From contig OZ024740.1 of NCBI GenBank assembly GCA_964016885.1, positions 425,382,001 to 425,446,000 of the forward strand: DNA of 64,000 nucleotides, given 5' to 3'. The DNA comes from Eledone cirrhosa. Lineage: Eukaryota. Both the position numbers and the translations under genes were made by a program. Shown one piece after another: positions 1 through 59,248 of the stretch. The notes beneath the pieces are model-generated. The model saw only the letters and a list, made by a program, of their open reading frames with translations. It was not told the origin of the DNA and made no database searches. Every line of letters starts with the position of its first letter. Position 1 is the stretch's first letter.

Positions 1-593
1 GTTTGTTTTTGAGTGTGGAACGGTCAAATATTTATTTACTTCAATGACAAAGAGAACTTATTACATTTCATACGAAACAACAATTATTCAAAAGCAACAG
101 ATAAATTTATTCAACAACAAAAAAAATACCGATAAATATTTTTTTAAACATCTATCAACGAACATGGAAGAAAGAAGTATCAGTTCATTTACTATACACA
201 ATAATATCCTCTATGAGGTCACTAAACCTGCTAGAAACAGCAGCTAACTCTCCCCCATATCACATCACTCCCTACTGTCTTAAATTTAGAAAACACACAT
301 TAGACAACCATGCAGAACAACTCCATCGCAGCTCTGTTGTTCGGCTGGCATCGTCTATGCGCGTGTTGCGCAAGTACTGTGAAACAATAAATTTCAACAC
401 TTCTTTGCATAGAGATAATATCCATAGGCGAAACTACAATTGTCACTGCTGGCGCAGCTCCTGCTTCGGCAGTCCAGGTCTGCAATTCATTCACCCAGTG
501 CCTGGCAGACAAAAAAGTGCTGCCATAAAATGGGTGGTGCAACCTAAATTTGGTAACTTACTGACCCCGAGCAACGCCGGGCTTTAATGCTAG
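1..593 (+). mobile_element. Helitron-like element, 3' end (non-coding, 5' boundary unknown)
   Basis: GC-rich hairpin CCCCGAGCAACGCCGGG (565-581) followed after 8 nt by terminal CTAG (590-593) and a T, the usual Helitron 3' signature. Confidence 0.6.
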
Positions 594-764
594 TATATAT
601 ATATATAATACATTAACAGAGAAAGCTTTAAGCGATACCCTGACCAACTCCATCTCACTCAACACACATTAGGAAATACCTAAGTATAATCCCAATTTAG
701 TGTTTGGGGTGCTAACTATACAGTATTCCGTGGATAGCTGGTTGTATTATTTTTTATGAGACAT

Positions 765-837
<73 letters not shown>

Positions 838-1070
838 TTAGAAACACACAGATACATGCGGACACACACATATATACATGAATGCATCCGCACCCAACTG
901 TGAGTTAAGGGTGCCAACTTCACCGATGTTGCTCAATGAATGACTGGGACAGACCAATTCAGTTGAACTAGACTGAACAAGTATCAGAGTTAAAAATACA
1001 TTATGAAGAGAGAAGAAACATTTAGATATAATTAGTAATAAAATGTATCATACCTAAACTGCTCCTAAAT

Positions 1071-1160
1071 TCCTCGACTACGTAGTTTCGTGGCATAAAC
1101 AAAAACAATATATCATAAAGATATAGAGTCCTTGCGAGGTCTGCCGACTTATCAAGAGGA
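1071..1160 (-). ncRNA. Hammerhead ribozyme (U3-A8 core variant), inverted copy
   Basis: Reverse complement of the motif at 2230-2319. Confidence 0.65.
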
Positions 1161-1634
1161 TACCTCATTTTACTAGTCTCAAGAACGCGTCTACACGACG
1201 TGAGAAAGAATCCCAAAAGGCGGAGGGGGAGATAGTCACGCGATATAACGGTCGAGAAACAGAGCTAAGCCCCTTATAACCCCGAAGAAAATACCACGGA
1301 GGCGGAGGGGGTATTTATATCGAGGCCGTAGAAGAGGTGGTGAAGAAGGCGAGAAGTATGAGTAATGGAAGCTTTCCAGCTGTCCCCACACTTCAAAGAT
1401 TGCTCGACCAGAGGGAGTTATTAACAATATATTTAGAAACACACAGATACATGCGGACACACACATATATACATGAATGCATCCGCACCCAACTGTGAGT
1501 TAAGGGTGCCAACTTCACCGTTGTTGCTCAATGAATGACTGGGACAGACCAATTCAGTTGAACTAGACTGAACCAGTATCAGAGTTAAAAATACATTATG
1601 AAGAGAGAAGAAACATTTAGATATAAATGAGGTA

Positions 1635-1724
1635 TCCTCTTGATAAGTCGGCAGACCTCGCAAGGACTCTATATCTTTATGATATATTGTTTTTGTTTAT
1701 GCCACGAAACTACGTAGTCGAGGA
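1635..1724 (+). ncRNA. Type I hammerhead ribozyme with UUGAUAA core
   Basis: tcctc-TTGATAA-gtcggca...tgccac-GAAA-ctacgtag-TC-gagga: 5-bp stem I, long stem II, palindromic stem III, GUC triplet. Confidence 0.65.
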
Positions 1725-2229
1725 ATTTAGGAGCAGTTTAGGTATGATACATTTTATTACTAATTATATCTAAATGTTTCTTCTCTCTTCATAATATATT
1801 TTTAACTCTGATACTGGTTCAGTCTAGTTCAAATGAATTGGTCTGTCCCAGTCATTCATTGAGCAACATCGGTGAAGTTGGCACCCTTAACTCACAGTTG
1901 GGTGCGGATGCATTCATGTATATATGTGTGTGTCCGCGTGTATCTGTGTGTTTCTAAATATATTGTTAATAACTCCCTCTGGTCGAGCAATCTTTGAAGT
2001 GTGGGGACAGCTGGAAAGCTTCCATTACTCATACTTCTCGCCTTCTTCACCACCTCTTCTACGGCCTCGATATAAATACCCCCTCCGCCTCCGTGGTATT
2101 TTCTTCGGGGTTATAAGAGGCTTAGCTCTGTTTCTCGACCGTTATATCGCGTGACTATCTCCCCCTCCGCCTTTTGGGATTCTTTCTCACGTCGTGTAGA
2201 CGCGTTCTTGAGACTAGTAAAATGAGGTA

Positions 2230-2319
2230 TCCTCTTGATAAGTCGGCAGACCTCGCAAGGACTCTATATCTTTATGATATATTGTTTTTGTTTATGCCAC
2301 GAAACTACGTAGTCGAGGA
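2230..2319 (+). ncRNA. Type I hammerhead ribozyme with UUGAUAA core (second tandem copy)
   Basis: Same sequence as 1635-1724, 595 bp downstream. Confidence 0.65.
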
Positions 2320-2388
2320 ATTTAGGAGCAGTTTAGGTATGATACATTTTATTACTAATTATATCTAAATGTTTCTTCTCTCTTCATA

Positions 2389-2471
<83 letters not shown>

Positions 2472-2475
<4 letters not shown>

Positions 2476-3610: not shown

Positions 3611-3657
3611 TGCTCCGATGATTCCAGACCTCCCTCTGGAAGAAACAATTGTCAGCA
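3611..3657 (+). ncRNA. Minimal Type I hammerhead ribozyme (CCGAUGA core)
   Basis: tgct-CCGATGA-ttccaga/cctccc/tctggaa-GAAA-caattg-TC-agca: perfect stems I and II, palindromic stem III, GUC. Confidence 0.75.
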
Positions 3658-4995: not shown

Positions 4996-7900
4996 TAGTA
5001 GATAGTATCTGCAATGGAAGACCAGTAAATAGTATCAACAATGGAAGACCAGTAAATAGTATCAACAATGGAAGACCAGTAAATAGTATCAACAATGGAA
5101 GACTAGTAAATAGTATCAACAGTGGAAGACCAGTAAATAGTATCAACAATGGAAGACCAGTAAATAATATAAACAATGGAAGACCAGTAAATAGTATCAA
5201 CAATGGAAGACCAGTAAATAGTATCAACAGTGGAAGACCAGTAAATAGTATCAACAATGGAAGACCAGTAAATAGTATCAACAATGGAAGACCAGTAAAT
5301 AATATCAACAATGGAAGACCAGTAAATAGTATCAACAGTGGAAGACCAGTAAATAGTATCAACAATGGAAGACCAGTAAATAGTATCAACAATGGAAGAC
5401 CAGTAAATAGTATCAACAGTGGAAGACCAGTAAATAATATCAACAATGGAAGACCAGTAAATAGTATCAACAATGGAAGACCAGTAAATAGTATCAACAG
5501 TGGAAGACCAGTAAATAGTATCAACAATGGAAGACCAGTAAATAGTATCAGCAATGGAAGACTAGTAAATAGTATCAACAATGGAAGACCAGTAAATAGT
5601 ATCAGCAATGGAAGACCAGTAAATAGTATCAGCAATGGAAGACTAGTAAATAGTATCAACAATGGAAGACCAGTAAATAGTATCAACAGTGGAAGACCAG
5701 TAAATAGTATCAAAAATGGAAGACCAGTAAATAGTATCAACAATGGAAGACCAGTAAATAGTATCAGAAATGGAAGACCAGTAAATAGTATCAAAAATGT
5801 AAGACCAGTAAATAGTATCAACAGTGGAAGACCAGTAAATAGTATCAAAAATGGAAGACCAGTAAATAGTATCAACAATGGAAGACCAGTAAATAGTATC
5901 AACAATGGAAGACCTGTAAATAGTATCAACAATGGAAGACCAGTAAATAGTATCAACAATGGAAGACCAGTAAATAGTATCAACAATGGAAGACCAGCAA
6001 ATAGTATCAACAATGGAAGACCAGTAAATAGTATCAAAATGGAAGACCAGTAAATTGTATCAACAATGGAAGACCAGTAAATAGTATAAAAAATGGAAGA
6101 CCAGTAAATAGTATCAACAGTGGAAGACCAGTAAATAGTATCAGCAATGGAAGATTAGTAAATAGTATCAACAATGGAAGACCAGTAAATAGTATCAACA
6201 ATGGAAGACCAGTAAATAGTATCAACAGTGGAAGACCAGTAAATAATATCAACAATGGAAGACCAGTATATAGTATCAACAATGGAAGACCAGTAAATAG
6301 TATCAACAGTGGAAGACCAGTAAATAGTATCAACAATGGAAGACCAGTAAATAGTATCAGCAATGGAAGACTAGCAAATAGTATCAACAATGGAAGACCA
6401 GTAAATAGTATCAGCAATGGAAGACCAGTAAATAGTATCAGCAATGGAAGACTAGTAAATAGTATCAACAATGGAAGACCAGTAAATAGTATCAACAGTG
6501 GAAGACCAGTAAATAGTATCAAAAATGGAAGACCAGTAAATAGTATCAACAATGGAAGACCAGTAAATAGTATCAGAAATGGAAGACCAGTAAATAGTAT
6601 CAACAATGGAAGACCAGTAAATAGTATCAAAAATGGAAGACCAGTAAATAGTATCAACAGTGGAAGACCAGTAAATAGTATCAAAAATGGAAGACCAGTA
6701 AATAGTATCAACAATGGAAGACCAGTAAATAGTATCAACAATGGAAGACCTGTAAATAGTATCAACAATGGAAGACCAGTAAATAGTATCAACAATGGAA
6801 GACCAGTAAATAGTATCAACAATGGAAGACCAGTAACTAGTATAAAAAATGGAAGACCAGTAAATAGTATCAACAGTGGAAGACCAGTAAATAGTATCAG
6901 CAATGGAAGATTAGTAAATAGTATCAACAATGGAAGACCAGTAAATATTATGAACAATGGAAGACCAGTAAATAGTATCAGCAATGGAAGACTATTAAAT
7001 AGTATCAAAAATGGAAGACCAGTAAATAGTATCAACAGTGGAAGACCAGTAAATAGTATCAACAATGGAAGACCAGTAAATAGTATCAAAAATGGAAGAC
7101 CAGTAAATAGTATCACCAGTGGAAGACCTGTAAATAGTATCAACAGTGGAAGACCAGTAAATAGTATCAACAATGGAAGACCAGTAAATAGTATCAGCAA
7201 TGGAAGACTAGTAAATAGTATAAAAAATGGAAGACCAGTAAATAGTATCAAAAATGGAAGACCAGTAAATAGTATCAACAATGGAAGACCAGTAAATAGT
7301 ATCAACAATGGAAGACCAGTAAATAGTATCAGCAATGGAAGACTAGTAAATAGTATCAAAAATGGAAGACCAGTAAATAGTATCAAAAATGGAAGACCAG
7401 TAGATAGTATCAACAATGGAAGACCAGTAAATAGTATCAAAAATGGAAGACCAGTAAAAAGTATCAGCAATGGAAGACCAGTAAATAGTATCAGCAATGG
7501 AAGACCAGTAAATAGTATCAGCAATGGAAGACTAGTAAATAGTATCAGCAATGGAAGACCAGTAAATAGTATCAACAATGGAAGACCAGTAAATAGTATC
7601 AGCAATGGAAGACCAGTAAATAGTATCAGCAATGGAAGACCAGTAAATAGTATCAACAATGGAAGACCAGTAAATAGTATCAACAATGGAAGACTAGTAA
7701 ATAGTATCAACAATGGAAGACCAGTAAATAGTATCAAAAATGGAAGATCAGTAAATAGTATCAACAATGGAAGACCAGTAAATAGTATCAACAATGGAAG
7801 ACCAGTAAATAGTATCAACAATGGAAGACGAGTAAATAGTATCAACAATGGAAGACTAGTAAATAGTATCAGCAATGGAAGACCAGTAAATAGTATCAAC

Positions 7901-10900
7901 AATGGAAGACTAGTAAATAGTATCAGCAATGGAAGACTATTAAATAGTATCAAAAATGGAAGACCAGTAAACAGTATCAACAGTGGAAGAGCAGTAAATA
8001 GTATCAACAATGGAAGACCAGTAAATAGTATCAAAAATGGAAGACCAGTAAATAGTATCAACAGTGGAAGACCAGTAAATAGTATCAACAGTGGAAGACC
8101 AGTAAATAGTATCAACAATGGAAGACCAGTAAATAGTATCAGCAATGGAAGACTAGTAAATAGTATCAAAAATGGAAGACCAGTAAGTAGTATCAAAAAT
8201 GGAAGACCAGTAAATAGTATCAACAATGGTAGACCAGTAAATAGTATCAACAATGGAAGACCAGTAAATAGTATCAGCAATGGAAGACTAGTAAATAGTA
8301 TCAACAATGGAAGACCAGTAAATAGTATCAACAATGGAAGACCAGTAAATAGTATCAACAATGGAAGACCAGTAAATAGTATCAGCAATGGAAGACTATT
8401 AAATAGTATCAAAAATGGAAGACCAGTAAATAGTATCAACAGTGGAAGACCAGTAAATAGTATCAACAATGGAAGACCAGTAAATAGTATCAAAAATGGA
8501 AGACCAGTAAATAGTATCACCAGTGGAAGACCAGTAAATAGTATCAACAGTGGAAGACCAGTAAATAGTATCAACAATGGAAGACCAGTAAATAGTATCA
8601 GCAATGGAAGACTAGTAAATAGTATAAAAAATGGAAGACCAGTAAATAGTATCAAAAATGGAAGACCAGTAAATAGTATCAACAATGGAAGACCAGTAAA
8701 TAGTATCAACAATGGAAGACCAGTAAATAGTATCAGCAATGGAAGACTAGTAAATAGTATCAACAATGGAAGACCAGTAAATAGTATCAAAAATGGAAGA
8801 TCAGTAAATAGTATCAACAATGGAAGACCAGTAAATAGTATCAGCAATGGAAGACTAGTAAATAGTATCAAAAATGGAAGACCAGTAAATAGTATCAAAA
8901 ATGGAAGACCAGTAGATAGTATCAACAATGGAAGACCAGTAAATAGTATCAAAAATGGAAGACCAGTAAAAAGTATCAGCAATGGAAGACCAGTATATAG
9001 TATCAGCAATGGAAGACTAGTAAATAGTATCAGCAATGGAAGACTAGTAAATAGTATCAGCAATGGAAGACCAGTAAATAGTATCAACAATGGAAGACCA
9101 GTAAATAGTATCAGCAATGGAAGACCAGTAAATAGTATCAGCAATGGAAGACCAGTAAATAGTATCAACAATGGAAGACCAGTAAATAGTATCAACAATG
9201 GAAGACTAGTAAATAGTATCAACAATGGAAGACCAGTAAATAGTATCAAAAATGGAAGATCAGTAAATAGTATCAACAATGGAAGACCAGTAAATAGTAT
9301 CAACAATGGAAGACCAGTAAATAGTATCAACAATGGAAGACCAGTAAATAGTATCAACAATGGAAGACTAGTAAATAGTATCAGCAATGGAAGACCAGTA
9401 AATAGTATCAACAATGGAAGACTAGTAAATAGTATCAGCAATGGAAGACTATTAAATAGTATCAAAAATGGAAGACCAGTAAACAGTATCAACAGTGGAA
9501 GACCAGTAAATAGTATCAACAATGGAAGACCAGTAAATAGTATCAAAAATGGAAGACCAGTAAATAGTATCAACAGTGGAAGACCAGTAAATAGTATCAA
9601 CAGTGGAAGACCAGTAAATAGTATCAACAATGGAAGACCAGTAAATAGTATCAGCAATGGAAGACTAGTAAATAGTATCAAAAATGGAAGACCAGTAAGT
9701 AGTATCAAAAATGGAAGACCAGTAAATAGTATCAACAATGGTAGACCAGTAAATAGTATCAACAATGGAAGACCAGTAAATAGTATCAGCAATGGAAGAC
9801 TAGTAAATAGTATCAACAATGGAAGACCAGTAAATAGTATCAACAATGGAAGACCAGTAAATAGTATCAACAATGGAAGACCAGTAATTAGTATCAGCAA
9901 TGGAAGACTATTAAATAGTATCAAAAATGGAAGACCAGTAAATAGTATCAACAGTGGAAGACCAGTAAATAGTATCAACAATGGAAGACCAGTAAATAGT
10001 ATCAAAAATGGAAGACCAGTAAATAGTATCACCAGTGGAAGACCAGTAAATAGTATCAACAGTGGAAGACCAGTAAATAGTATCAACAATGGAAGACCAG
10101 TAAATAGTATCAGCAATGGAAGACTAGTAAATAGTATAAAAAATGGAAGACCAGTAAATAGTATCAAAAATGGAAGACCAGTAAATAGTATCAACAATGG
10201 AAGACCAGTAAATAGTATCAACAATGGAAGACCAGTAAATAGTATCAGCAATGGAAGACTAGTAAATAGTATCAAAAATGGAAGACCAGTAAATAGTATC
10301 AAAAATGGAAGACCAGTAAATAGTATCAACAATGGAAGACCAGTAAATAGTATCAACAATAGAAGACCAGTAAATAGTATCAGCAATGGAAGACTAGTAA
10401 ATAGTATCAACAATGGAAGACCAGTAAATAGTATCAACAATGGAAGACCAGTAAATAGTATCAACAATGGAAGACCAGTAAATAGTATCAACAATGGAAG
10501 ATCAGTAAATAGTATCAACAATGGAAGACCAGTAAATATTATGAACAATGGAAGACCAGTAAATAGTATCAGCAATGGAAGACCAGTAAATAGTATCAGC
10601 AATGGAAGACCAGTAAATAGTATCAACAATAGAAGACTAGTAAATAGTATCAACAATGGAAGACCAGTAAATAGTATCAAAAATGGAAGACCAGTAAATA
10701 GTATCAACAATGGAAGACCAGTAAATAGTATCAACAATGGAAGACCAGTAGATAGTATCAACAATGGAAGACCAGTAAATAGTATCAAAAATGGAAGACC
10801 AGTAAAAAGTATCAGCAATGGAAGACCAGTAAATAGTATCAGCAATGGAAGACCAGTAAATAGTATCAGCAATGGAAGACTAGTAAATAGTATCAGCAAT

Positions 10901-13517
10901 GGAAGACCAGTAAATAGTATCAACAATGGAAGACCAGTAAATAGTATCAGCAATGGAAGACCAGTAAATAGTATCAGCAATGGAAGACCAGTAAATAGTA
11001 TCAGCAATGGAAGACTAGTAAATAGTATCAGCAATGGAAGACCAGTAAATAGTATCAACAATGGAAGACCAGTAAATAGTATCTGCAATGGAAGACCAGT
11101 AAATAGTATCAACAATGGAAGACTAGTAAATAGTATCAACAATGGAAGACCAGTAAATAGTATCAACAATGGAAGACCAGTAAATAGTATCAGCAATGGA
11201 AGACTAGTAAATAGTATCAGCAATGGAAGACTAGTAAATAGTATCAGCAATGGAAGACTAGTAAATAGTATCAGCAATGGAAGACTAGTAAATAGTATCA
11301 ACAATGGAAGACCAGTAAATAGTATCAACAGTGGAAGACCAGTAAATAGTATCAACAATGGAAGAATAGTAAATAGTATCAGCAATGGAAGACTATTAAA
11401 TAGTATCAAAAATGGAAGACCAGTAAATAGTATCAACAGTGGAAGACCAGTAAATAGTATCAACAATGGAAGACCAGTAAATAGTATCAAAAATGGAAGA
11501 CCAGTAAATAGTATCAACAGTGGAAGACCAGTAAATAGTATCAACAGTGGAAGACCAGTAAATAGTATCAACAATGGAAGACCAGTAAATAGTATCAGCA
11601 ATGGAAGACTAGTAAATAGTATCAAAAATGGAAGACCAGTAAATAGTATCAAAAATGGAAGACCAGTAAATAGTATCAACAATGGAAGACCAGTAAATAG
11701 TATCAGCAATGGAAGACCAGTAAATAGTATCAACAATGGAAGACCAGTAAATAGTATCAGCAATGGAAGACTAGTAAATAGTATCAACAATGGAAGACCA
11801 GTAAATTGTATCAACAATGGAAGACCAGTAAATAGTATCAACAATGGAAGACCAGTAAATAGTATCAACAATGGAAGATTAGTAAATAGTATCAACAATG
11901 GAAGACCAGTAAATATTATGAACAATGGAAGACCAGTAAATAGTATCAGCAATGGAAGACCAGTAAATAGTATCAACAATGGAAGACCAGTAAATAGTAT
12001 CAACAATGGAAGACTAGTAAATAGTATCAACAATGGAAGACCAGTAAATAGTATCAAAAATGGAAGATCAGTAAATAGTATCAACAATGGAAGACCAGTA
12101 AATAGTATCAACAATGGAAGACCAGTAAATAGTATCAACAATGGAAGACCAGTAAATAGTATCAACAATGGAAGACTAGTAAATAGTATCAGCAATGGAA
12201 GACCAGTAAATAGTATCAGCAATGGAAGACCAGTAAATAGTATCAGCAATGGAAGACTAGTAAATAGTATCAGCAATTGAAGACCAGTAAATAGTATCAA
12301 CAATGGAAGACCAGTAAATAGTATCAGCAATGGAAGACCAGTAAATAGTATCAGCAATGGAAGACCAGTAAAATAGTATCAGCAATGGAAGTCTTGTAAA
12401 TAGTATCAGCAATGGAAGACCAGTAAATAGTATCAACAATGGAAGACCAGTAAATAGTATCTGCAATGGAAGACCAGTAAATAGTATCAGCAATGGAAGA
12501 CCAGTAAATAGTATCAGCAATGGAAGACTAGTAAATAGTATCAACAATGGAAGACCAGTAAATGGTATCAACAGTGGAAGACCAGTAAATAGTATCAGCA
12601 ATGGAAGACCAGTAAATAGTATCAGCAATGGAAGACCAGTAAATAGTATCAACAGTGGAAGACCAGTAAATAGTATCAGCAATGGAAGACTAGTAAATAG
12701 TATCAACCATGGAAGACCAGTAAATAGTATCAGCAATGGAAGACCAGTAAATAGTATTAACAATGGAAGACCAGTAAATAGTATCAGCAATGGAAGACCA
12801 GTAAATAGTATCAGCAATGGAAGACCAGTAAATAGTATCAACAGTGGAAGACCAGTAAATAGTATCAACAATGGATGACTAGTAAATAGTATCAACAGTG
12901 GAAGACCAGTAAATAGTATCAAAAATGGAAGACCAGTAAATAGTATCAAAAATGGAAGACCAGTAAATAGTATCAACAATGGAAGACCAGTAAATAGTAT
13001 CAACAGTGGAAGACCAGTAAATAGTATCAACAATGGAAGACCAGTAAATAGTATCAACAGTGGAAGACCAGTAAATAGTATCAACAGTGGAAGACCAGTA
13101 AATAGTATCAACAATGGAAGACCAGTAAATAGTATCAACAGTGGAAGACCAGTAAATAGTAACAGCAATGGAAGACTAGTAAATAGTATCAACAGTGGAA
13201 GACCAGTAAATAGTATCAAAAATGGAAGACTAGTAAATAGTATCAACAATGGAAGACCAGTAAATAATATCAACAATGGAAGACCAGTAAATAGTATGAA
13301 CAATGGAAGACCAGTAAATAGTATCAAAAATGGAAGACCAGTAAATGGTATCAACAATGGAAGACCAGTAAATAGTATCAACAATGGAAGACCAGTAAAT
13401 AGTATCAGCAATGGAAGACCAGTAAATAGTATCAACAGTGGAAGACCAGTAAATAGTATCAACAGTGGAAGACCAGTAAATAGTATCAAAAATGGAAGAC
13501 CAGTAAATAGTATCAAC
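4996..13517. repeat. 27-bp tandem satellite (AATGGAAGACCAGTAAATAGTATCAAC)n, ~315 copies, with a 1512-bp higher-order repeat
   Basis: Continuous head-to-tail units with no spacers. Rare variants recur 1512 bp apart (7400/8912; 7969/9481). 1-nt indels near 6037 and 12370. Confidence 0.97.
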
Positions 13518-13640
13518 ATGGAAAGATCAATGGAAGCTTTGTTTCCCTTGGTCCGATTTGATGGCCTCGATAATTAAATGATGTCTGCGATCTTGTTCAT
13601 TAAATCCATCTTTTCCCTATTTCCGCTCATAATAGTGTGT

Positions 13641-18456: not shown

Positions 18457-18489
<33 letters not shown>

Positions 18490-18899
18490 GAGGTTATCAC
18501 ATACATAAAATTAAATTAAATTAAATCAATGATACATATATGTGTTGCAACTGTTCACTTTTAAGCTCAATGAAGAATTAATAAGTTAAAATCAAAAACT
18601 CAGAGCATTATATCATAAAACGTGTCTATAGAATCAATCAGATATTAAAATATATACTATTTCTTCCTCTAATCAGCATAATTAACCATATACATAATCA
18701 AATCCAGCAAGCTTTAAGAGTAAATTTTCTAACTGGGAAATCTCCGACAAATAATTGATCGCAGCCAGTTCGCGTTAACTCCGTTCCATTATTTATCAAA
18801 CATTTCGGCAGCATGCAGAATCCGATCAAACATATCGTCAACCGCACATAATTAGTAGTAAAATTAAACTTAGAAGAAATGCGCACATACCGTAATTAT

Positions 18900-18978
18900 A
18901 TTTCGACCATGGTTTCTTCCTTGTTTAGGACATCCAAATAATATGGACTGTCCTGAGTCAGGCTAATCATCAGGAGAC
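18900..18978 (-). ncRNA. Hammerhead ribozyme, inverted copy
   Basis: Reverse complement of 19227-19305 with one change in stem I. Confidence 0.7.
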
Positions 18979-19226
18979 AAACTCATAAATAGACATTTAA
19001 TTTCTCGGACAGACCCCGCCAAATTTAGATTCAAAAATGGCTAAGATCGCAATGTAGCTGTGTACCAGCCAGAGAGAAAGCGTGTGATTGGTCGCTTACG
19101 GCGGGTAGGCATGCTGCTAGAAAGCGCAGCCATATATCGCCAAATTTAATCTCAACCGATAGGGAGATTATTAAATCTAAATTTGGCGGGGTCTGTCCGA
19201 GAAATTAAATGTCTATTTATGAGTTT

Positions 19227-19305
19227 GTCTCCTGATGATTAGCCTGACTCAGGACAGTCCATATTATTTGGATGTCCTAAACAAGGAAGAAACCATGGTC
19301 GAGAT
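19227..19305 (+). ncRNA. Type I hammerhead ribozyme with extended stem II
   Basis: gtctc-CTGATGA-...aggacagtcca/tatt.tt/tggatgtcct...-GAAA-ccatgg-TC-gagat. Confidence 0.75.
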
Positions 19306-19589
19306 ATAATTACGGTATGTGCGCATTTCTTCTAAGTTTAATTTTACTACTAATTATGTGCGGTTGACGATATGTTTGATCGGATTCTGCATGCTGCCGA
19401 AATGTTTGATAAATAATGGAACGGAGTTAACGCGAACTGGCTGCGATCAATTATTTGTCGGATATTTCCCAGTTAGAAAATTTACTCTTAAAGCTTGCTG
19501 GATTTGATTATGTATATGGTTAATTATGCTGATTAGAGGAAGAAATAGTATATATTTTAATATCTGATTGATTCTATAGACACGTTTTA

Positions 19590-19620
<31 letters not shown>

Positions 19621-31781: not shown

Positions 31782-34700
31782 TTCTTCTGGTTTTATAATT
31801 TCACAAAGTTTTACCAATAGAGAGAGAGTCGGTTTCTAACATAGACACAAGACTCTCTCATTGGAATTTACACAACATCAACTAGGTAGATATGTATGCA
31901 TGCATGTGTAGATATGGATGTTATTGTATGTGTGGATGTGTATGTGTGCATGTGTATATGCTTTGTATCTGTACATGTGTATATGCAGTTATTAGATGCA
32001 AAATTTTTGGAATGTTTTACATATTTTTACTGTTTCATTAATGGATTGTACTTGTAATTTCCTAACTAGTTGTGTTCTTTCTGTTCCTGTGAAGCCTAGC
32101 TTCTCAAGATTTGTATTGAGGCAGTTACTAACATATCCGAGTGCCCCAATAATCCTTCAAAGTGGGAGCCAATATAGCAGTTGTTGGTCCAAGATAGACT
32201 TTATCTATATTACTCTCCCTTTGAAGCTTCCTGGCAACATATCCATGCATGATTTTTTGCTGATAGGCATGCAGTTTTTCATCCATGGATTCACTGCGAT
32301 ACTGCTGAGCGACATCCCTGGGTGTGAGTTTTTGATTATCACACCGGGAATATCTCTCAAGGAGTTCCTTCCCAACTCTCATGATCTTATCTGTTTCATG
32401 CAGATAGACTTGCTCGAGAAGCGGGCTCCTACGCTTCGAGGTTCGTAGATGTTGACTGAGAGATATGATGCGACATTCAAATGTTGTCTGGACTGATGTT
32501 AGGCCTCTGCCTCCCTGCTTACGTTTCAAGTAAAGGCGGTCTATGTCACTATTGATGTGCAAGTTTCCGGTGTTGTTCAGTAATTTTCGAGTTCCAACAT
32601 CAACTGCTTGGATTTCGTCTATCGTCCAATTGAGTATTCCAAACGTTGGTGTTAGGACAGGCACAGCAAACACATTGTGAGCCACTGTTTTGTTTTGCGC
32701 AGAGAGTTCCGATGACCAGATCTTTCTTAATCGGGTGTAGTATTCCCTGGTTACGCGTTCTTTATTACATATACCATTATAGGATATGTTCTCATCTATC
32801 CCCAGGTATCTGTAGCAGTCCTCATCAGATATCGGTGAAACAGTTAGACCATTGATGACAATGTTGCTAGATTGGGTTGTTGCTTTTCCCCGCTTTACAG
32901 TCATGTATGAGCATTTATCTTGGCCAAACTCCAGTCCTATATCCTTTGAGAACGTTGTAACCAGGTCAAGATTTTTCTTCATCCCATCTATGTTCTTGGC
33001 ATAGAGTTTCAGATCATCCACAAAGAAGTTATGGGGTAGGTTCGTATTTCTGTCCTCCTGTGAACCAATGATGTATCCCTCACATTTCTTGAGCAGAAAG
33101 GACAAGGGGTTTATTGACAAGATGAACAATATCACAGAGAAACTGTCCCCCTGAAATATACCCCTGCGATATTTTACTTTATCAGTGAAAATAGAGTCCT
33201 CCCTCTCTGTCTTTAACCTTAGGATAGTAGCCCAAGAAGAAGACAGCCTCTCTATGGCTCTGACAATAATGTCTGGGACTTTAGTAAGCTGGAGGGCCTC
33301 TATCATCCAAGAGCGGGGAACAGAAACGAAAGCTTTCTTGTAGTCCAGCCAGACTGTAGTCATATTCCTCCTAAGTTGTCGCACCTCCGACATCGCAGTT
33401 TTGTTGATTAGGAGTTGTTCAGCACATCCCCAAACCCTTTTCTTTCCAGCTGCTTGTTCATCTGTGATAATGTTATTATTTTCACAGTGATCTTGGAGGA
33501 ATAGGTTCAGGCAGGCTGTATACATCTTATACATCAGGTTCTGGCATGCAATGGGTCGGCAGTTTTTGCCAAGTTGGTGTCTTTGCTCTTGGGGACCAGT
33601 AACGTTTGTGCTAATGTCAACCATTCTGGTATAAGTGTATCTCCCTTAAGAACTTGTTGGTAGAGGTCAGTAAGATACCTCCGATAGAATATCAGTTTTT
33701 TGTACCAGTAGCCGACAATCATGTCTCTTCCTGGTGTTTTCTTATCTTGGAGTTTTCCTATCACAGTCTCAAGGGTACCCTCACTTATTTCATATGTTTT
33801 TGTTGTAGTGTAGGAGCAATAGTTCTTTCGGATTTCGCTTAGCCACACTGCATCTTGGTTGAAATTCTTCTTTTCACCCCATATTTTTCTCCAAAAGGAA
33901 TCTATGTCTTTCTGGGATGGGGCCTCAGTGACACTTATTATTTTGCCCTTCATATCTCTATAGACTGATGTTTGGTTTCGTCTGAATCTTTTATTAAGCA
34001 TTTTTCTCTCATCTACCTTCTTCAGGTATCAGCGTTTTTCGCTAACAGCTCTCAATTCTTGTTTGAGGGTGATCAGCTTATATTGGAGAGTTCTGTTTCT
34101 ACTGTTACCAAACATCTTCTCTATTTTATTTTTCACTCTTTGTTGGTGAGGAGTGATGTTTTTTTTAGTTTGTTTGCATGTAAGGAGCATTATCACATGA
34201 CCTATGTTTTTTCGTAGGTCAGCACTCTTTTTTTCTATTTTAGTTATATATGATGGTATTTTTGGTGGTGTTTTGTTCTTGTTAATATCTCTGCTATCAC
34301 CAAGATAATGCTCCACTGTCATTGCTAAGGCATATAAACAGGCGTTGATTTGCCAAAATGTTGGGGTTTTTATCCGTCGTAAATATTCATCCCCTATTTC
34401 GTCAATAACACGTAGTATTTCATTATTTGGCTTTTTATTCACCATTGTCATTTTAACACGTTCAGCCAGAGAGATATTTATACATGAGTTAATTTCTCTC
34501 TGGAAGATTTCGTTGAGGGAAATTTTCAATTGTTTATACTTTTGATTATCATTATGGATAGTATTTTCCACAACAGTCGAGGTAGACTCGGATGGTATAC
34601 GTGGTGTCACATTTATTTGATTATTATTATTATTTCCTCGATTATTATTATCGATAGTGTTTTCCCCAGCATTCGAGGTAGACTTAGATAGTACACGTGG

Positions 34701-35356
34701 TGTCAAATTTCTTACAGGCATAGTTGTTTCAAGGCGCTGTTCGACCTGGCTGCTAGGAAGTCTAGTAGCATGGCGATCTGTAGCACGTGTTGTTGATTCC
34801 ATGTTTGTTGTGGGGGACTTACAATTAATAATATTTATCTTATTTTTACGTTCAACAAACATCGCTTGTTGGCGTAATTGTTTCGCTGTGAAATAATTTA
34901 GCTCTGGGTGCATTTCGTCCCAGTGTAGCTTCATTCTATTCATATAGCCAATGGAGGGATTGTTTTTTGCCATTTTATAACAATTAAATAAATCATTATT
35001 AAGTTCGCAACCCCAAGAGAAATGCGATTTATAATTTCGGTTTCTTCTGTAGCTACAACTGAATAAAGTTTGATTACCTTCTTTGTTATTTGTCTTCGAT
35101 ACTTCCTTAATTTTCTTGTTGATGTTGTGTTCAGCCATGCTGTTTGTAGCAAATCCTTGTAAAATGAATTATGTATTTAGTCGGATATCTCTACGAATTC
35201 GAATAAAAGGTGTCTTCAGAAGGGATAGTTAGAAGAATAACCAGTTATTCAACCTGGCTGTAGTTGTGGCATTACTGTCGGAGATAGTATTCATCTTAAA
35301 TTTAATAAATAGTCTCCCACGCCAAAATATGCGACTGATCGCGTTGACTGATGGAA
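31782..35356 (-). mobile_element. R4/Dong-like RLE non-LTR retrotransposon, frameshifted and internally deleted
   Basis: ORFs 34029-35138, 33534-34001 and 32128-33624: N-terminal W...CY...GY..RM..W block; RT motifs RPIAC, WLDYKKAF, RGIFQGDS, FVDDLKLY, YRYLG; flanked by (TATG)n. Confidence 0.85.
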
Positions 35357-38281: not shown

Positions 38282-38333
<52 letters not shown>

Positions 38334-38364
38334 AAGAATCAAAGAACTGTTCAAAACATTATTG

Positions 38365-38412
38365 TGCTTACAGCTGTTTCCTCCAAACCGAGGTTTGGAT
38401 TCTTCGGAGCAA
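38365..38412 (-). ncRNA. PLE hammerhead ribozyme (mirror copy)
   Basis: Reverse complement of 44665-44712. Confidence 0.7.
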
Positions 38413-39854
38413 TTTATTAATGCATGGACAGTTATATGACCTCCTTTTCAGCCGAGAGACATACCAAATACATATTCAAACATTGATACATATTCAAACA
38501 TTGTGGGTCAACATTCATTACAGAATTTAGAGTGGCAGTACACACTTCGAGATTACATTTATATTAATAGGTACAATCAAAAATCAAAGATATAGGTTAA
38601 AGTACAACATGAAGATAAGTGGTTATATAGTGCAAATGTTATATGTGTGGCACGCATGTGCGTCTTGTTTATATAGTGTGGCAGAGAGATATGTGTGGTA
38701 GAGGCACTTAGGTAGGTAAATAAGAGTGTTAGGTTGGTAGGTCTGGTGGCAAAGTCTTTATATGATTGATATAGTCTGTGTGTGGAGAAATATTATAAGC
38801 ATTAAAGATAGTGCAAGCATTAAAAGTGTTATAAGTATTGGAGATGCACAGCGCAGGGATGTCAAGTAATTCATGTACTTCGGCATTTTCATGGTCAAGG
38901 GAGTGTATATTTCGATTATATGCCTTTCACATAATCCACGACAATCCAGTTAGAGATCGTAGTCTGGTGTTCTTTAGTTCGATACAGGAGGTTGTTACGT
39001 TTCGAGAAACGCCATTGAATACCGGAAGTGTGTGTGTGGCTAAGGGGAGTTAATGCATGCGGGGAGGTAACTCTGGGGTTTCTATATCTAGCCATTAAAA
39101 TGTGTCCCAATATAGACCCTAAATTCTATGGTGAGGTGCACCTTCCAAGAGAGACTTTTAAAGCATAAAGTGTACTAACTATAGAGTAGTTTAACTAAAT
39201 TATGCTGAAGGTGATCATATTATTATTAAGGTGGATTAACCCATCTTAAGGTGCTACAAATGGAAATTATAGATGATGAGCGAGGATTCTAAATTAATGA
39301 TCTCTGTGGTTGTAGTCTGCTCATATGACCAGGCGCGGTGATTGCAGGATTGTTTCAGGACCCAATGATCTCTGGTAAGATCTGGGTCATCGCTTGCTAC
39401 ATTGGATGTCGAAAGATAATCGTCCCCAGGCAGGCCAAAGGTCAATCCGCAGTCCTCGCGACCCCTCTCTGACCGTCAGATCATCCATATACGTACAACC
39501 CGCACGGCAGTTGCATTGCATTCACTCACTGCGCTCAGCAGCCCGGTCCTACTGGTCAACAGCGCTACTCGATTAAATCATTTTACATCTGTCTAAGGAA
39601 GGTGTTTCCTCTGCCCAACACCATCCAACCGATCAATTCATGCTAAAATTACCCTTAGAGCGGTGTAGTGCCATCAAGTGGGTGGATGTTGTCACACCTG
39701 CCGTAGAGGTATAAATGGGTATTTTCCCTGCGAAGGGTTCCAGAGGGATGTCGTTGTTTGTGTTATAATGGATCAGCTAGTGTTGGGTATGTAGTATAGG
39801 GTGTGTTTCTGGTGTTTGATGCTAGATGTGGTGTTAGGTTCCAGTCCGACATTG

Positions 39855-42314
39855 CTATATATAGGGCTTAAAGTTTTGGAAGGAATGTCTGAGGCGGTGC
39901 TGGCAAGTTGCAAACACCTCAGATTTTTTGTTAAGTAGGTTACGGTTGGAGAAGATAATATTGTGTGTCTCTAGTATACAGAGGTTACAGAATTTATTAG
40001 GTGGTTTGTACGAGGTCGCGCTGCCTATCACTTCCCATTTGAGTGTGTATGGTTTATTTTTAGATTTTAGATAGTGTATGTAGCTAGAAAGTGAGGTGGA
40101 GTTGGCTAGGCTGTGCTTTTTGAACGAGTGGATGTGCGAGTTATATCTGATTTTGAAGCAGTTAGAAGTGGAGCCTACATAGGTTTCTGAAGAGTTATTA
40201 GTCGTGACTGTGCATGAGTATATGACATCCTTGGTTAGGCATTTTTTATCTAAAGGGCAGGTTCTATTAGCTCTACAGTTACAATTATTCTGTGCGTTAG
40301 TCCGCTGGTTATAATGCAATGCGGAAGTCTGTGTGGTGGATATAGGATTTTGGGTGTTCGGGTTGGCAACCCTGGTGTTATTACTTATACTAGTGTTATT
40401 TCTATTGTTACTGCCGTTGCTATTGTTGCTTGCTACAGTGGTATTTAGAGGGTTTGCATCCTGTTGTGATTTTGTTTGTTGGAAGTAAGAACTAATTTTA
40501 CTATTATTGCTGCTAGCTATGTGGTATGCTAAGTTAGGCGTCGTAGAGTATGAGATTTTAATGGTGTTTTTGTTTAAGAGGTTGTGGTACTTGTGTCCTA
40601 GAGGGAAGTTTTTATCTAGTAGTGAGAAGAAAGCCCTAGGTATGTTGGTGGAGACATTTAGGTTGAAAGGAGGGTTGAAAAATGTATTATTTCTTCTTCT
40701 ATTTTTGCTTTTAGTGTTTGGTGTGTTGCTTCCTCCTAAGGCCTCACAGTAGTTTCCATGGTAATGGTTACTTCCTGTGGCACCCTCCGCTTTGGTGTAC
40801 TTGTGGTTGCTATTCCTATTATTAGATTTCCTCATGGACATGTTGTGCGAGATTATGTTGTAGCTATGTGTTTTCTTAGGTAGGAACTCAATTTCTATAT
40901 TATGGCCGGAGCTAGCTAATGCTTGATTGTAATATTGTGAGTTTTTGCTAAATATGTTTGCGTCATAGGACAGACTAGAGATTCTATTGGACACCCCCTT
41001 AGAGATAGAGTTTAATATTGATCTAGGGTGATTAGACTTGGTATCTACGTAAATAAGTTTCTCATTAGGCTTATGGAAAGGTGTATATATTTTTGAGTCT
41101 AGGTATAGTGTGGCGTCTAGGAAGTTAACATTTTTAGTGTTTTTGTCCATGGTGATACTAAGGTTAAAGTTTTTGAATGTCTTATGCAGTTGTTTTCTAG
41201 TTCTTTCTATATTAAATTTTTTATATTCTATGAGTAGAAGTGCATCATCGCGGTACAAACCACCGTTGAGGTAAGGGAGGTCTTTATGGATTTCATTGAG
41301 GAGGTATAGGCCGACCAAATCAGTGACCTGCGCCGAGTCACTAGATCCCATGGTTATGTCGAAGTTGTTGTGCGTATCCTTGCGTGTCCATAGTTGGTCC
41401 TCGAAGGTGATTATGGTTTTACGGGCCGCAAGGATGACATCAACCTGGGCTCTAGTCAGGTCGCTATTGGTCATGGCCATGATAAGTGCCTTATTTAATA
41501 GGATAGGGGAAATAGAGGTGTAGTATGAATTGATATCAAATTGAATAAATTTTTTGTTCTTATTATTCTTGATATCCTTAAACCATTCAATTACTTCACC
41601 CGTATTTCCCCATTGTTTAAGGTGTATCTTGTGTTTAATTTGTGGGATGATTTTATCCAAAATCTTCTTGCTGATAATACCAATGTCGGACTTGGAAGGG
41701 CAGATAAGTCTTATCGTGGGGTTGCTGATGAAGTTCTCCTTATGGTCCTTCAGAGAGAATCTAGGGTGGTTCGGAGTGAAAGGTTGTGTATGCCTCTGTA
41801 GTCCTAGTTTAGACACTATATTATAACCCTCTACATTAATATCTTCTAAGTTTTTCAAGGTGGTTTTTTTGTAGCTTTTATGTAGTTCATTATATATAAA
41901 CTTTCTATAAGTAATATAATCTAGGCTGTATATGTTATTAGTTTTATCTGCGTGTACAATAATTTTATTACTAGTTTTGAATCCACTAATAGAAGTGTTA
42001 AGTTTGTTTAAGAAGGTGTTGCTTCTAATATGGTGCTTATTGTATTTAATGTTCGTAACTAGTTTAACTAGGTCATTTTCAAAGGAGTTAAGTAGAGTGT
42101 TATGAGGGGGGCTTTTAAAGGTTTTAAAGCCGAAGGAGTCAAAATTGTTAGTATTATTCAAGTTGTTAGATTTGTTTCTATCATAATGGAATGTCCTCCA
42201 TCTCACTCTATTGATAAATGAATTTACACTGTTGATCAGCAATTTCTCATATGTATTCCTGGATGGTATTGGTATGTTCTTGGTTGACATGGGGAGTTGG
42301 TCTTTGATTAGCAT
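39855..42314 (-). CDS. Intact Penelope-like reverse transcriptase / GIY-YIG endonuclease, 819 aa (possibly Nematis-like)
   Basis: Uninterrupted ATG ORF; RT motifs FDINSYYTSI, MGSSDS, LYRDD, FLD; Cys linker CNCR...CPL..KC; GIY-YIG VIY..YVG..RY..H, CNLCILE, LLNK. Confidence 0.92.
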   Translation of the reverse strand: MLIKDQLPMSTKNIPIPSRNTYEKLLINSVNSFINRVRWRTFHYDRNKSNNLNNTNNFDSFGFKTFKSPPHNTLLNSFENDLVKLVTNIKYNKHHIRSNTFLNKLNTSISGFKTSNKIIVHADKTNNIYSLDYITYRKFIYNELHKSYKKTTLKNLEDINVEGYNIVSKLGLQRHTQPFTPNHPRFSLKDHKENFISNPTIRLICPSKSDIGIISKKILDKIIPQIKHKIHLKQWGNTGEVIEWFKDIKNNKNKKFIQFDINSYYTSISPILLNKALIMAMTNSDLTRAQVDVILAARKTIITFEDQLWTRKDTHNNFDITMGSSDSAQVTDLVGLYLLNEIHKDLPYLNGGLYRDDALLLIEYKKFNIERTRKQLHKTFKNFNLSITMDKNTKNVNFLDATLYLDSKIYTPFHKPNEKLIYVDTKSNHPRSILNSISKGVSNRISSLSYDANIFSKNSQYYNQALASSGHNIEIEFLPKKTHSYNIISHNMSMRKSNNRNSNHKYTKAEGATGSNHYHGNYCEALGGSNTPNTKSKNRRRNNTFFNPPFNLNVSTNIPRAFFSLLDKNFPLGHKYHNLLNKNTIKISYSTTPNLAYHIASSNNSKISSYFQQTKSQQDANPLNTTVASNNSNGSNNRNNTSISNNTRVANPNTQNPISTTQTSALHYNQRTNAQNNCNCRANRTCPLDKKCLTKDVIYSCTVTTNNSSETYVGSTSNCFKIRYNSHIHSFKKHSLANSTSLSSYIHYLKSKNKPYTLKWEVIGSATSYKPPNKFCNLCILETHNIIFSNRNLLNKKSEVFATCQHRLRHSFQNFKPYI

Positions 42315-42535
42315 ATTGGCAATATTATATGTCAGCTCAACGATATGGAGCAGTTAATAGTATTAGTTATACTATTTATGGTTATGTAAACACAAAACCT
42401 TAAGCAGTTGTAAGTATTTTACACACACCCTAAATAGTGGTAGGCAGTAATGTATTACTACCTTATTACCAGTAAGTTAAGTAGCTCAATGTAAAAACAT
42501 CAGATGATTTACAGAGCAGTTATATGAAATATAAG

Positions 42536-43222
42536 ACGCCTAACTTAGCATACCACATAGCTAGCAGCAATAATAGTAAAATTAGTTCTTACTTCCAACA
42601 AACAAAATCACAACAGGATGCAAACCCTCTAAATACCACTGTAGCAAGCAACAATAGCAACGGCAGTAACAATAGAAATAACACTAGTATAAGTAATAAC
42701 ACCAGGGTTGCCAACCCGAACACCCAAAATCCTATATCCACCACACAGACTTCCGCATTGCATTATAACCAGCGGACTAACGCACAGAATAATTGTAACT
42801 GTAGAGCTAATAGAACCTGCCCTTTAGATAAAAAATGCCTAACCAAGGATGTCATATACTCATGCACAGTCACGACTAATAACTCTTCAGAAACCTATGT
42901 AGGCTCCACTTCTAACTGCTTCAAAATCAGATATAACTCGCACATCCACTCGTTCAAAAAGCACAGCCTAGCCAACTCCACCTCACTTTCTAGCTACATA
43001 CACTATCTAAAATCTAAAAATAAACCATACACACTCAAATGGGAAGTGATAGGCAGCGCGACCTCGTACAAACCACCTAATAAATTCTGTAACCTCTGTA
43101 TACTAGAGACACACAATATTATCTTCTCCAACCGTAACCTACTTAACAAAAAATCTGAGGTGTTTGCAACTTGCCAGCACCGCCTCAGACATTCCTTCCA
43201 AAACTTTAAGCCCTATATATAG
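42536..43222 (+). pseudogene. Duplicated 3' part of the PLE ORF (linker + GIY-YIG only)
   Basis: Identical to the C-terminal ~228 aa of the 819-aa ORF; the ATG at 42524 comes from the inversion junction. Confidence 0.85.
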
Positions 43223-44664
43223 CAATGTCGGACTGGAACCTAACACCACATCTAGCATCAAACACCAGAAACACACCCTATACTACATACCCAACACTAG
43301 CTGATCCATTATAACACAAACAACGACATCCCTCTGGAACCCTTCGCAGGGAAAATACCCATTTATACCTCTACGGCAGGTGTGACAACATCCACCCACT
43401 TGATGGCACTACACCGCTCTAAGGGTAATTTGAGCATGAATTGATCGGTTGGATGGTGTTGGGCAGAGGAAACACCTTCCTTAGACAGATGTAAAATGAT
43501 TTAATCGAGTAGCGCTGTTGACCAGTAGGACCGGGCTGCTGAGCGCAGTGAGTGAATGCAATGCAACTGCCGTGCGGGTTGTACGTATATGGATGATCTG
43601 ACGGTCAGAGAGGGGTCGCGAGGACTGCGGATTGACCTTTGGCCTGCCTGGGGACGATTATCTTTCGACATCCAATGTAGCAAGCGATGACCCAGATCTT
43701 ACCAGAGATCATTGGGTCCTGAAGCAATCCTGCAATCACCGCGCCTGGTCATATGAGCAGACTACAACCACAGAGATCATTAATTTAGAATCCTCGCTCA
43801 TCATCTATAATTTCCATTTGTAGCACCTTAAGATGGGTTAATCCACCTTAATAATAATATGATCACCTTCAGCATAATTTAGTTAAACTACTCTATAGTT
43901 AGTACACTTTATGCTTTAAAAGTCTCTCTTGGAAGGTGCACCTCACCATAGAATTTAGGGTCTATATTGGGACACATTTTAATGGCTAGATATAGAAACC
44001 CCAGAGTTACCTCCCCGCATGCATTAACTCCCCTTAGCCACACACACACTTCCGGTATTCAATGGCGTTTCTCGAAACGTAACAACCTCCTGTATCGAAC
44101 TAAAGAACACCAGACTACGATCTCTAACTGGATTGTCGTGGATTATGTGAAAGGCATATAATCGAAATATACACTCCCTTGACCATGAAAATGCCGAAGT
44201 ACATGAATTACTTGACATCCCTGCGCTGTGCATCTCCAATACTTATAACACTTTTAATGCTTGCACTATCTTTAATGCTTATAATATTTCTCCACACACA
44301 GACTATATCAATCATATAAAGACTTTGCCACCAGACCTACCAACCTAACACTCTTATTTACCTACCTAAGTGCCTCTACCACACATATCTCTCTGCCACA
44401 CTATATAAACAAGACGCACATGCGTGCCACACATATAACATTTGCACTATATAACCACTTATCTTCATGTTGTACTTTAACCTATATCTTTGATTTTTGA
44501 TTGTACCTATTAATATAAATGTAATCTCGAAGTGTGTACTGCCACTCTAAATTCTGTAATGAATGTTGACCCACAATGTTTGAATATGTATCAATGTTTG
44601 AATATGTATTTGGTATGTCTCTCGGCTGAAAAGGAGGTCATATAACTGTCCATACATTAATAAA

Positions 44665-44712
44665 TTGCTCCGAAGAATCCAAACCTCGGTTTGGAGGAAA
44701 CAGCTGTAAGCA
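44665..44712 (+). ncRNA. PLE minimal hammerhead ribozyme (CCGAAGA core)
   Basis: tgct-CCGAAGA-a-tccaaac/ctcg/gtttgga-g-GAAA-cagctg-TA-agca; predicted cleavage after 44708. Confidence 0.72.
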
Positions 44713-44930
44713 CAATAATGTTTTGAACAGTTCTTTGATTCTTATATTTCATATAACTGCTCTGTAAATCATCTGATGTTTTTACATTGAGCTACTTAAC
44801 TTACTGGTAATAAGGTAGTAATACATTACTGCCTACCACTATTTAGGGTGTGTGTAAAATACTTACAACTGCTTAAGGTTTTGTGTTTACATAACCATAA
44901 ATAGTATAACTAATACTATATATATATATA

Positions 44931-46678: not shown

Positions 46679-46785
46679 ATTTCTGCAGCTGAGTAAAGTG
46701 GAGCAACGTGAAATAAAATGAGAATTGAACTCACAACCTTTCGATTGCAAGCCCAATGCTCTAACAACTAAGCCATGCGCCTTCA
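46679..46785 (-). mobile_element. SINE family A fragment
   Basis: Minus strand ggcgcatggcttagttgttagagc...gagttcaattc...tttcacgttgctccac. Confidence 0.7.
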
Positions 46786-59147: not shown

Positions 59148-59172
59148 TAGACAGACAGACAGACAGACAGAC

Positions 59173-59242
<70 letters not shown>

Positions 59243-59248
59243 ATAGAT

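Follow-up and report, generated by a model that had tools for sequence, protein, structure and literature searches.

Introduction

For animal retrozymes, it has been proposed that tandem cDNA is made on a circular template by the reverse transcriptase (RT) of Penelope-like elements (PLEs) (PMC7229834; bioRxiv 10.64898/2026.07.22.740005), and circle-templated insertion of retrozymes appears as a hypothesis in PMC4209133 and PMC7229834. The 2026 preprint (bioRxiv 10.64898/2026.07.22.740005) additionally proposes homology of retrozymes to the pLTR of autonomous PLEs. In the case of the PLEs themselves, the origin of tandem and inverted insertions and of insertions with a one-sided tail is called undefined in PMC8557442, where insertion into (TA)n is described for the Hydra clade. 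In vitro, hammerhead cleavage proved dispensable for the anole PLE, the uncut RNA being the main substrate (PMC11167929).

Regarding the ribozymes, a palindromic helix III is described as the dimer design of PLE hammerheads (PMC4209133; PMC6765202). Natural covariation from C3-G8 to U3-A8 is likewise published and stated to be active in vitro, with about 1,300 U3-A8 matches in Schistosoma and a palindromic helix III that suits dimers (PMC3088659; PMC4209133).

The retrozyme class, the U3-A8 core and the idea of a circular template are thus already in print (PMC7229834; PMC4209133; bioRxiv 10.64898/2026.07.22.740005). The present work adds genomic evidence that priming occurs at two fixed sites of one template, that copies pass through a monomer bottleneck, and that editing has likely left an imprint. 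A search of mostly open-access literature found no report of this family, of an obligatory pairing of two end sites or of an editing imprint in retrozyme copies.

Results and discussion

Structure of the insertion

The insertion lies within the window, i.e. the whole stretch of 64,000 nt of Eledone cirrhosa DNA that was analysed. Its target is a (TA)n microsatellite, of which the left half occupies 771..830 (repeat finder and sequence) and the right half 2392..2473 (repeat finder). Between these halves two arms stand head to head. The left arm (831..1626, minus strand) has 796 nt or 1.34 units and covers unit positions 45..595 and 1..245, and the right arm (1625..2394, plus strand) has 770 nt or 1.29 units and covers 501..595, 1..595 and 1..80; self-BLAST places their junction at 1625..1626, with an overlap of 2 nt. 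A first-pass annotation had described about 1.3 copies of a 595-nt unit in each direction, both arms exceeding one unit, and this agrees with self-BLAST and a repeat finder. The monomer (1720..2314, plus strand) is flanked by both predicted cuts and gives the predicted circle used for circular folding; unit position 1 is 1720, the first base past the predicted cut. Read from 1626 to 831, the left arm is 98.9% identical to this monomer (self-BLAST).

The 3' end of the right arm marks site A (2382..2394, plus strand, unit ~68-80) and that of the left arm site B (831..840, minus strand, unit ~236-245). Both are TA-like and may act in priming, and site B shows microhomology to (TA)n. Within the monomer they delimit an A-to-B domain (1787..1964, plus strand, unit ~68-245) that consists of site A, hairpins and site B, and in which the alignment fold contains six base pairs with compensatory changes on both sides. 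Pairing of A with B is seen in the alignment fold and is absent from the fold of the whole circle.

Folded as a circle, the unit reached a z score of -6.5 for the sense strand and -1.2 for the antisense strand against 40 dinucleotide shuffles. The absence of a convincing ORF, also noted earlier, was confirmed, as the longest ATG-initiated ORF on the circular unit has 76 aa in sense and 46 aa in antisense direction. An RT-endonuclease ORF is absent from the 595-nt unit, and the element itself is not an autonomous PLE.

The hammerhead ribozyme

Each hammerhead of the insertion is of type I, with a 5-bp helix I, a bulged helix II into which a long hairpin (~55 nt) is inserted and a 10-nt palindromic helix III. 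Two lie on the plus strand, at 1635..1724 (predicted cut after C 1719, based on sequence, fold and conservation) and 2230..2319 (predicted cut after 2314), and the left arm carries one on the minus strand at 1071..1160 (predicted cut between 1076 and 1075). The first-pass annotation had listed the two plus-strand motifs, which indeed end at 1719 and 2314, exactly 595 nt apart; the total rises to three with the minus-strand motif (1076). Its cut positions coincide with our own hammerhead mapping, and the core UUGAUAA, with U3 at 1640 and A8 at 1645, is borne out by the sequence. For helix III, the predicted energies are -12.9 kcal/mol as self-duplex versus +1.5 kcal/mol as hairpin, and the palindrome marks a predicted dimer-type ribozyme.

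In each of the insertions that cover the position (134 of 134), every copy carries U3, 54 loci having been selected on that half of the motif, and both U3 and A8 were kept in 20 of 20 older relatives. A genome search returned 0 C3-G8 relatives with these flanks and 8 U3-G8 point variants. The compensatory double change suggested earlier is therefore fixed throughout the family, but it is not new (PMC3088659; PMC4209133). Compared to the published U3-A8 hammerheads, the pair is here fixed across a retrozyme lineage of about 25% divergence and is combined with the 10-nt palindrome and the hairpin insert in helix II. An Rfam scan of the window at gathering threshold yielded no hammerhead and only a tRNA-like match; standard CUGANGA or Rfam scans overlook this family of thousands of copies.

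Judged by its pattern of variation, the ribozyme sequence is under constraint. All-copy variants affected 1 of 44 sites in the hammerhead versus 100 of 501 elsewhere, a depletion that is inflated because 54 loci had been selected on the hammerhead 5' half and A8 was left out. In the unselected 3' half alone, 1 of 25 sites was affected (p 0.06). Between the majority sequences of old and young copies, 0 of 19 hammerhead 5'-half positions differed, versus 97 of 500 elsewhere (p 0.03). Variants of single copies were not depleted in the hammerhead (23/44 versus 191/501). As the alignment contained no two-sided changes in the hammerhead helices, covariation gives no support here and invariance does.

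Further U3-A8 hammerhead-like families with differing palindromes were observed at loci L120 (minus strand, ~2479), L260 (~4832) and L004 (~2781), so that U3-A8 occurs in more than one family of this genome. Across the mapped loci, about 20 types of hammerhead-like motif with a palindromic helix III could be distinguished.

The family and its relation to retrozymes

A 27-mer of the hammerhead has 5,595 exact matches in the 3.0-Gb genome (reversed control, 0), and the copies are dispersed over many contigs. Units of 595, 593 or 591 nt follow each other head-to-tail for up to 4.9 turns. The retrozyme family is young and high-copy, and in its older relatives (73-85% identity) the unit length and the two end sites are preserved. 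For the following analyses 140 loci were mapped in five sets. Of these loci, 54 were unselected and comprise the clusters formed by the first 100 matches on one contig, minus one. Site A served as anchor for 20 loci and site B for 20 of 22, and the remaining sets are 39 best BLAST matches and 7 carriers of the substitution A8G.

We conclude with high confidence that the element is an animal non-LTR retrozyme. This had been suggested from the window, and the non-coding, tandem units in thousands of dispersed copies fit it well. None of 212 arm 5' flanks continues into a PLE ORF, which argues for a non-autonomous unit and not for the stump of a PLE; three flanks contain PLE pieces at a distance of about 500-1,200 nt. 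It is thus very improbable that the copies are pLTR stumps left by 5' truncation of an autonomous PLE, or a tandem satellite homogenised by conversion. Although the architecture matches that of PLE insertions (PMC8557442), PLE stumps would not account for a 595-nt period repeated up to 4.9 turns without an ORF. Moreover, only 8 copies diverge directly after the hammerhead, all of them point variants, and no coding PLE with a 3' end matching unit 505-250 was found. A search for a coding partner with the same hammerhead gave 391 matches that differ in the base after helix I; none of the 30 loci checked was attached to an ORF, these being older 73-85% relatives or point variants. For a diverging contig of public run X5, no counterpart family was found in the genome.

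Considered as an animal non-LTR retrozyme, the element agrees with this class in the type I hammerhead of every non-coding tandem unit, the thousands of dispersed copies, the strongly folded predicted circle and the co-occurrence of PLEs (PMC7229834; bioRxiv 10.64898/2026.07.22.740005). Its unit is longer than the usual 150-450 nt of animal retrozymes, yet within the range of 51-972 given in the preprint (bioRxiv 10.64898/2026.07.22.740005). It differs from known animal retrozymes in the U3-A8 core and the long helix II insert. In the predicted circle the hammerhead is sequestered, which is unusual for animals according to PMC7229834. The parts of PMC7229834 and of the preprint consulted here mention neither fixed ends at two sites nor inverted arms nor an A>G imprint, all of which are described below.

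In comparison to plant LTR retrozymes, which have type III hammerheads in LTRs and a 4-bp target-site duplication, the fold is of type I and there are no LTRs, the only terminal direct repeats being those of the unit itself. TA was found on the 3' side of 66 of 68 single-armed copies and on the 5' side of 52 of 68. In such (TA)n targets a target-site duplication would be masked. The unit was also seen at far lower depth in runs of two other organisms (X4 and X6), and X6 contains a diverged form as well.

Two fixed outer ends

Two places with a spacing of 165 nt account for the outer (3') arm ends, namely site A at unit ~80 and site B at unit ~245. It had been asked earlier whether genomic copies start at varied phases of the unit; this is the case for the inner (5') ends, which are scattered, but not for the outer ends with their two fixed sites. 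Among 74 two-armed insertions, 70 combined A with B, two had A at both ends, two had A and another end, and none had B twice. In the unselected set alone, 25 of 26 two-armed insertions were of the A+B type. The older relatives followed the same rule in 10 of 12 cases, of the other two one being truncated and one unassigned. Loose (AT)n ends in public contigs were found at 1963, equivalent to site B (run X1), and at 1799, i.e. at site A (runs X1 and X2).

The gaps at the junctions of 70 simple pairs were mostly between -11 and 0, consistent with joining by microhomology. A pile-up of A-arm ends at site B, as a stalled circle might give, was not significant (1/66).

Two apparent A+A pairs among the older copies turned out to be B arms in which another element interrupts the arm at site A. 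A repeat starting with CTAG, which may be Helitron-like, is inserted exactly at site A of the older copies L127, L133, L135 and L143 and splits the arm. An end related to this repeat adjoins (TA)n near 570-594 of the window.

A probable single template for both arms

To what extent both arms descend from the same molecule can be read from their variants. Segregating minor alleles were present in both arms in 172 cases and in one arm in 28. Variants common to both arms would also follow if the second arm had arisen by self-priming, with the first cDNA folding back as its own template, a hypothesis put forward for Penelope inverted repeats (PMC3846280), and 41 of 66 simple pairs are compatible with this in length. 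In the remaining 25 of 66, to which the window insertion belongs by its coordinates, neither arm is contained in the other, which rules out fold-back copying as the source of the second arm there. As both outer ends are in addition fixed and joined directly to the target, we consider fold-back synthesis most unlikely. Instead, it is very likely that two target ends prime on one template.

Copying extended beyond one unit length. In locus sets A-C, 64 of 144 arms exceeded one unit and 11 exceeded two, the longest reaching 4.9. In these sets 184 cut sites were crossed and only 4 inner ends lay within 5 nt of a cut. All 307 passes over the unit junction were free of indels.

More insight can be gained from rare variants at the 35,512 arm positions that were copied at least twice. 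Here 101 variants occurred in all turns, 208 in one turn and only 2 in some turns. A change can reach every turn only via a monomer step followed by synthesis of the concatemer; the all-turn variants point to a monomer bottleneck. Of the variants present in both arms, 22 were in all copies and 5 were not. The private haplotype of locus L094 was common to 8 turns. The all-turn and one-turn classes also differ in their mutation spectrum (see below), which makes conversion between units a poor explanation: a satellite homogenised by conversion predicts many partial patterns and one spectrum, as opposed to the two spectra observed.

These patterns bear on priming by a PLE at two sites of an uncut linear multimer, transcribed through a tandem copy, for which the hammerhead would be dispensable. 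The in vitro preference of the anole PLE for uncut RNA (PMC11167929) speaks for such a template. So do locus L258, with A8G in both covered copies, and a slight excess of inner ends at unit 1-25 (14/198, one-sided p 0.04). Two of the five variants that are in both arms but not in all copies, at loci L280 and L283, are limited to the first-copied turn of both arms, which fits a multimer template or conversion between arms. On a multimer, however, a new change could not reach every turn, contrary to the 101 all-turn variants, which have a distinct A>G spectrum and face only 2 partial variants, and to the 8 turns of L094. Priming of both ends at one site of two different units would also be possible, whereas B+B was never seen and A+A is rare. 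The ribozyme, moreover, is conserved. Altogether, we regard the uncut multimer as unlikely.

The sharing of variants by all turns would be explained equally well if a monomer bottleneck were followed by a different concatemer step, namely RNA-to-RNA rolling-circle replication or exact, repeated template jumps on a linear monomer. Replication from RNA to RNA has been reported in a plant retrozyme (PMC9695139), and for DRT2 the literature describes tandem cDNA that stems from a single non-coding RNA (PMC12039810). Either route requires an extra activity. With template jumps the 307 junction passes without an indel are less expected, and with an RNA multimer the A+B pairing is not forced; this makes both routes rather improbable. 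Rolling-circle reverse transcription is preferred here, and a monomer circle is likely to be part of the cycle.

An excess of A>G changes

The spectrum of the all-turn variants was dominated by A>G, with 55 cases versus 10 of T>C, compared to 19 versus 32 among the one-turn variants (Fisher p 2e-7). Because the all-turn counts are not independent, they were recounted by tree parsimony, which gave 51 A>G and 18 T>C (113 of 140 insertions); G>A and C>T were likewise unequal (27 versus 15). Two or three subfamilies show A>G at identical sites, and 10 of 13 recurrent sites lie within predicted A-U pairs. The PLE used as control showed no such bias, with an A>G to T>C ratio of 22:49.

In variants unique to one insertion the excess was not significant (A>G 6 versus T>C 7), and neither were ADAR neighbour preferences at the A>G sites. 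Fixed differences between old and young copies were little biased (17 of 128 A versus 15 of 181 T). Selection for G-U wobble pairs could contribute to the bias. Nevertheless, we consider it moderately likely that the A>G changes originate from ADAR acting on the sense RNA, as suggested by the mutation spectrum and by what is generally known of ADAR behaviour. In mussels, editing has been named as one possible cause of the heterogeneity of circles (PMC7229834).

A candidate partner enzyme

The window also contains a two-armed insertion of an intact Hydra-clade PLE (38327..44920), a candidate source of the RT/endonuclease in trans. Its 832-aa ORF (39855..42353, minus strand) encodes an RT plus, at the C-terminus, a GIY-YIG-type endonuclease with the Hydra motifs RWR, DKT, CxCX5C, CxxC and CxH; the clade was assigned by comparing translation motifs to section 11 of PMC8557442. 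A Pfam search of the protein returned no family. The PLE has a hammerhead-like motif with the core CCGAAGA and targets (TA)n. All 150 of 150 scored genomic matches to its endonuclease region were 98-100% identical, and judged by these identities the PLE is very young and its family apparently active.

The end rule applies to this PLE as well. Among pairs chosen from genome-search matches, 17 of 18 two-armed insertions were complete, and 17 of 17 paired position cut+43 with cut+207, a spacing of about 164. Its variants were found in both arms in 193 cases (71 unique to the insertion) and in one arm in 66. Directly after site A, the unit forms a bulged stem (1805..1864, plus strand), a candidate recognition element by a motif that was defined post hoc; the stem likewise follows site A of the Hydra PLE and, with compensated letters, recurs in five other types of hammerhead motif.

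Unit and Hydra PLE thus share the site spacing, the (TA)n target and the bulged stem. Comparison of the unit with the tail of the window PLE gave no significant similarity (70 of 200 shuffles scored as high), and no significant alignment was obtained with other hammerhead families in the mapped loci. Because the stem motif is post hoc and the similarity not significant, the partner can be named at the level of the clade only. At this level, a Hydra-clade PLE is the probable partner enzyme, as far as can be deduced from sequence.

In more general terms, the insertions resemble those of endonuclease-bearing PLEs in their head-to-head arms, the longer 3' end on one side only and the AT-rich targets (PMC8557442; PMC3846280). 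PLEs are also comparable in having two internal RT start sites, extension of both strands in vitro and a predicted dimer (PMC11167929). The retrozyme is non-coding, unlike endonuclease-bearing PLEs, and its one-sided 'tail' has 165 nt and is near-obligatory on exactly one side, whereas 30-40 nt are given for known PLEs (PMC8557442; PMC3846280). For the anole PLE, start sites are described as equal between the strands and without homology to the target (PMC11167929), as opposed to the ends with TA microhomology observed here.

Proposed mechanism of insertion

Taken together, insertion probably proceeds by twin-primed rolling-circle reverse transcription of a single RNA monomer, probably circular and probably A-to-I-edited, by a Hydra-clade PLE enzyme. 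Firstly, a copy with two hammerheads would be transcribed, the palindromic helix III would let these act as a dimer that cuts after C17, and the 595-nt circle would be closed by a host ligase. Secondly, the mutation spectrum suggests that ADAR could edit some adenosines in the stems of the circle. The (TA)n tract would then be cut by a Hydra-clade Penelope-like RT-endonuclease. Thirdly, TA microhomology would let one target end start at site A and its counterpart at site B, a step of which the pattern is observed and the enzyme putative. Fourthly, each RT would circle the template with strand displacement over a random distance. Finally, the two cDNAs would be joined head to head over a few shared bases, which would give the inverted two-armed insert that is observed.

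Twin priming as described by Ostertag and Kazazian for LINE-1 is reportedly similar, in that both target ends prime on one RNA and the inverted segments join by microhomology. The second site is said to be variable there and the segments to be without overlap. In the present case, by contrast, neither site varies, and the arms overlap each other and are longer than one unit.

As a tentative extension, it is conceivable that the genome preserves traces of rolling-circle retrotransposition, in which a dimer of a Hydra-clade PLE enzyme docks on the structured 165-nt RNA domain, primes both ends of the cut microsatellite at the two fixed sites and makes several rounds of a ribozyme-made circle. 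A-to-I edits of the circle would then enter each turn and be inherited, host editing would drive the evolution of this viroid-like element, and the two-site rule would account for tandem and inverted PLE structures and for one-sided tails in general. The data provide population-scale genomic support for the insertion mode of PLEs and for circle-templated insertion of retrozymes. They also define a small kit that can be tested: the 832-aa protein, the 595-nt RNA, the start sites mapped at two places and a target of (TA)n. Should the mechanism hold, a eukaryotic retrotransposon RT would perform rolling-circle synthesis at both ends of a break, and RNA editing would become heritable via a circular intermediate.

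Other features of the window

Further hammerhead-like motifs with a palindromic helix III were detected at 3614, 16351 and 27503 (plus strand) and 53366 (minus strand), each ending at (TA)n. At 18486-19590, a two-armed head-to-head element carries a C3-G8 hammerhead-like motif with the palindrome ACCATGGT and, downstream of it, a very long predicted hairpin. The tRNA-like Rfam match (46710-46782, minus strand) has a poor acceptor stem and is possibly the head of a SINE. Broken LINE-type RT frames lie at 32128-35168 (minus strand) and 57570-62731, the first with a match to Pfam RVT_1. Finally, a tandem array with a 27-bp period fills positions 4997-13523; it has about 316 copies, and both strands contain long open frames.
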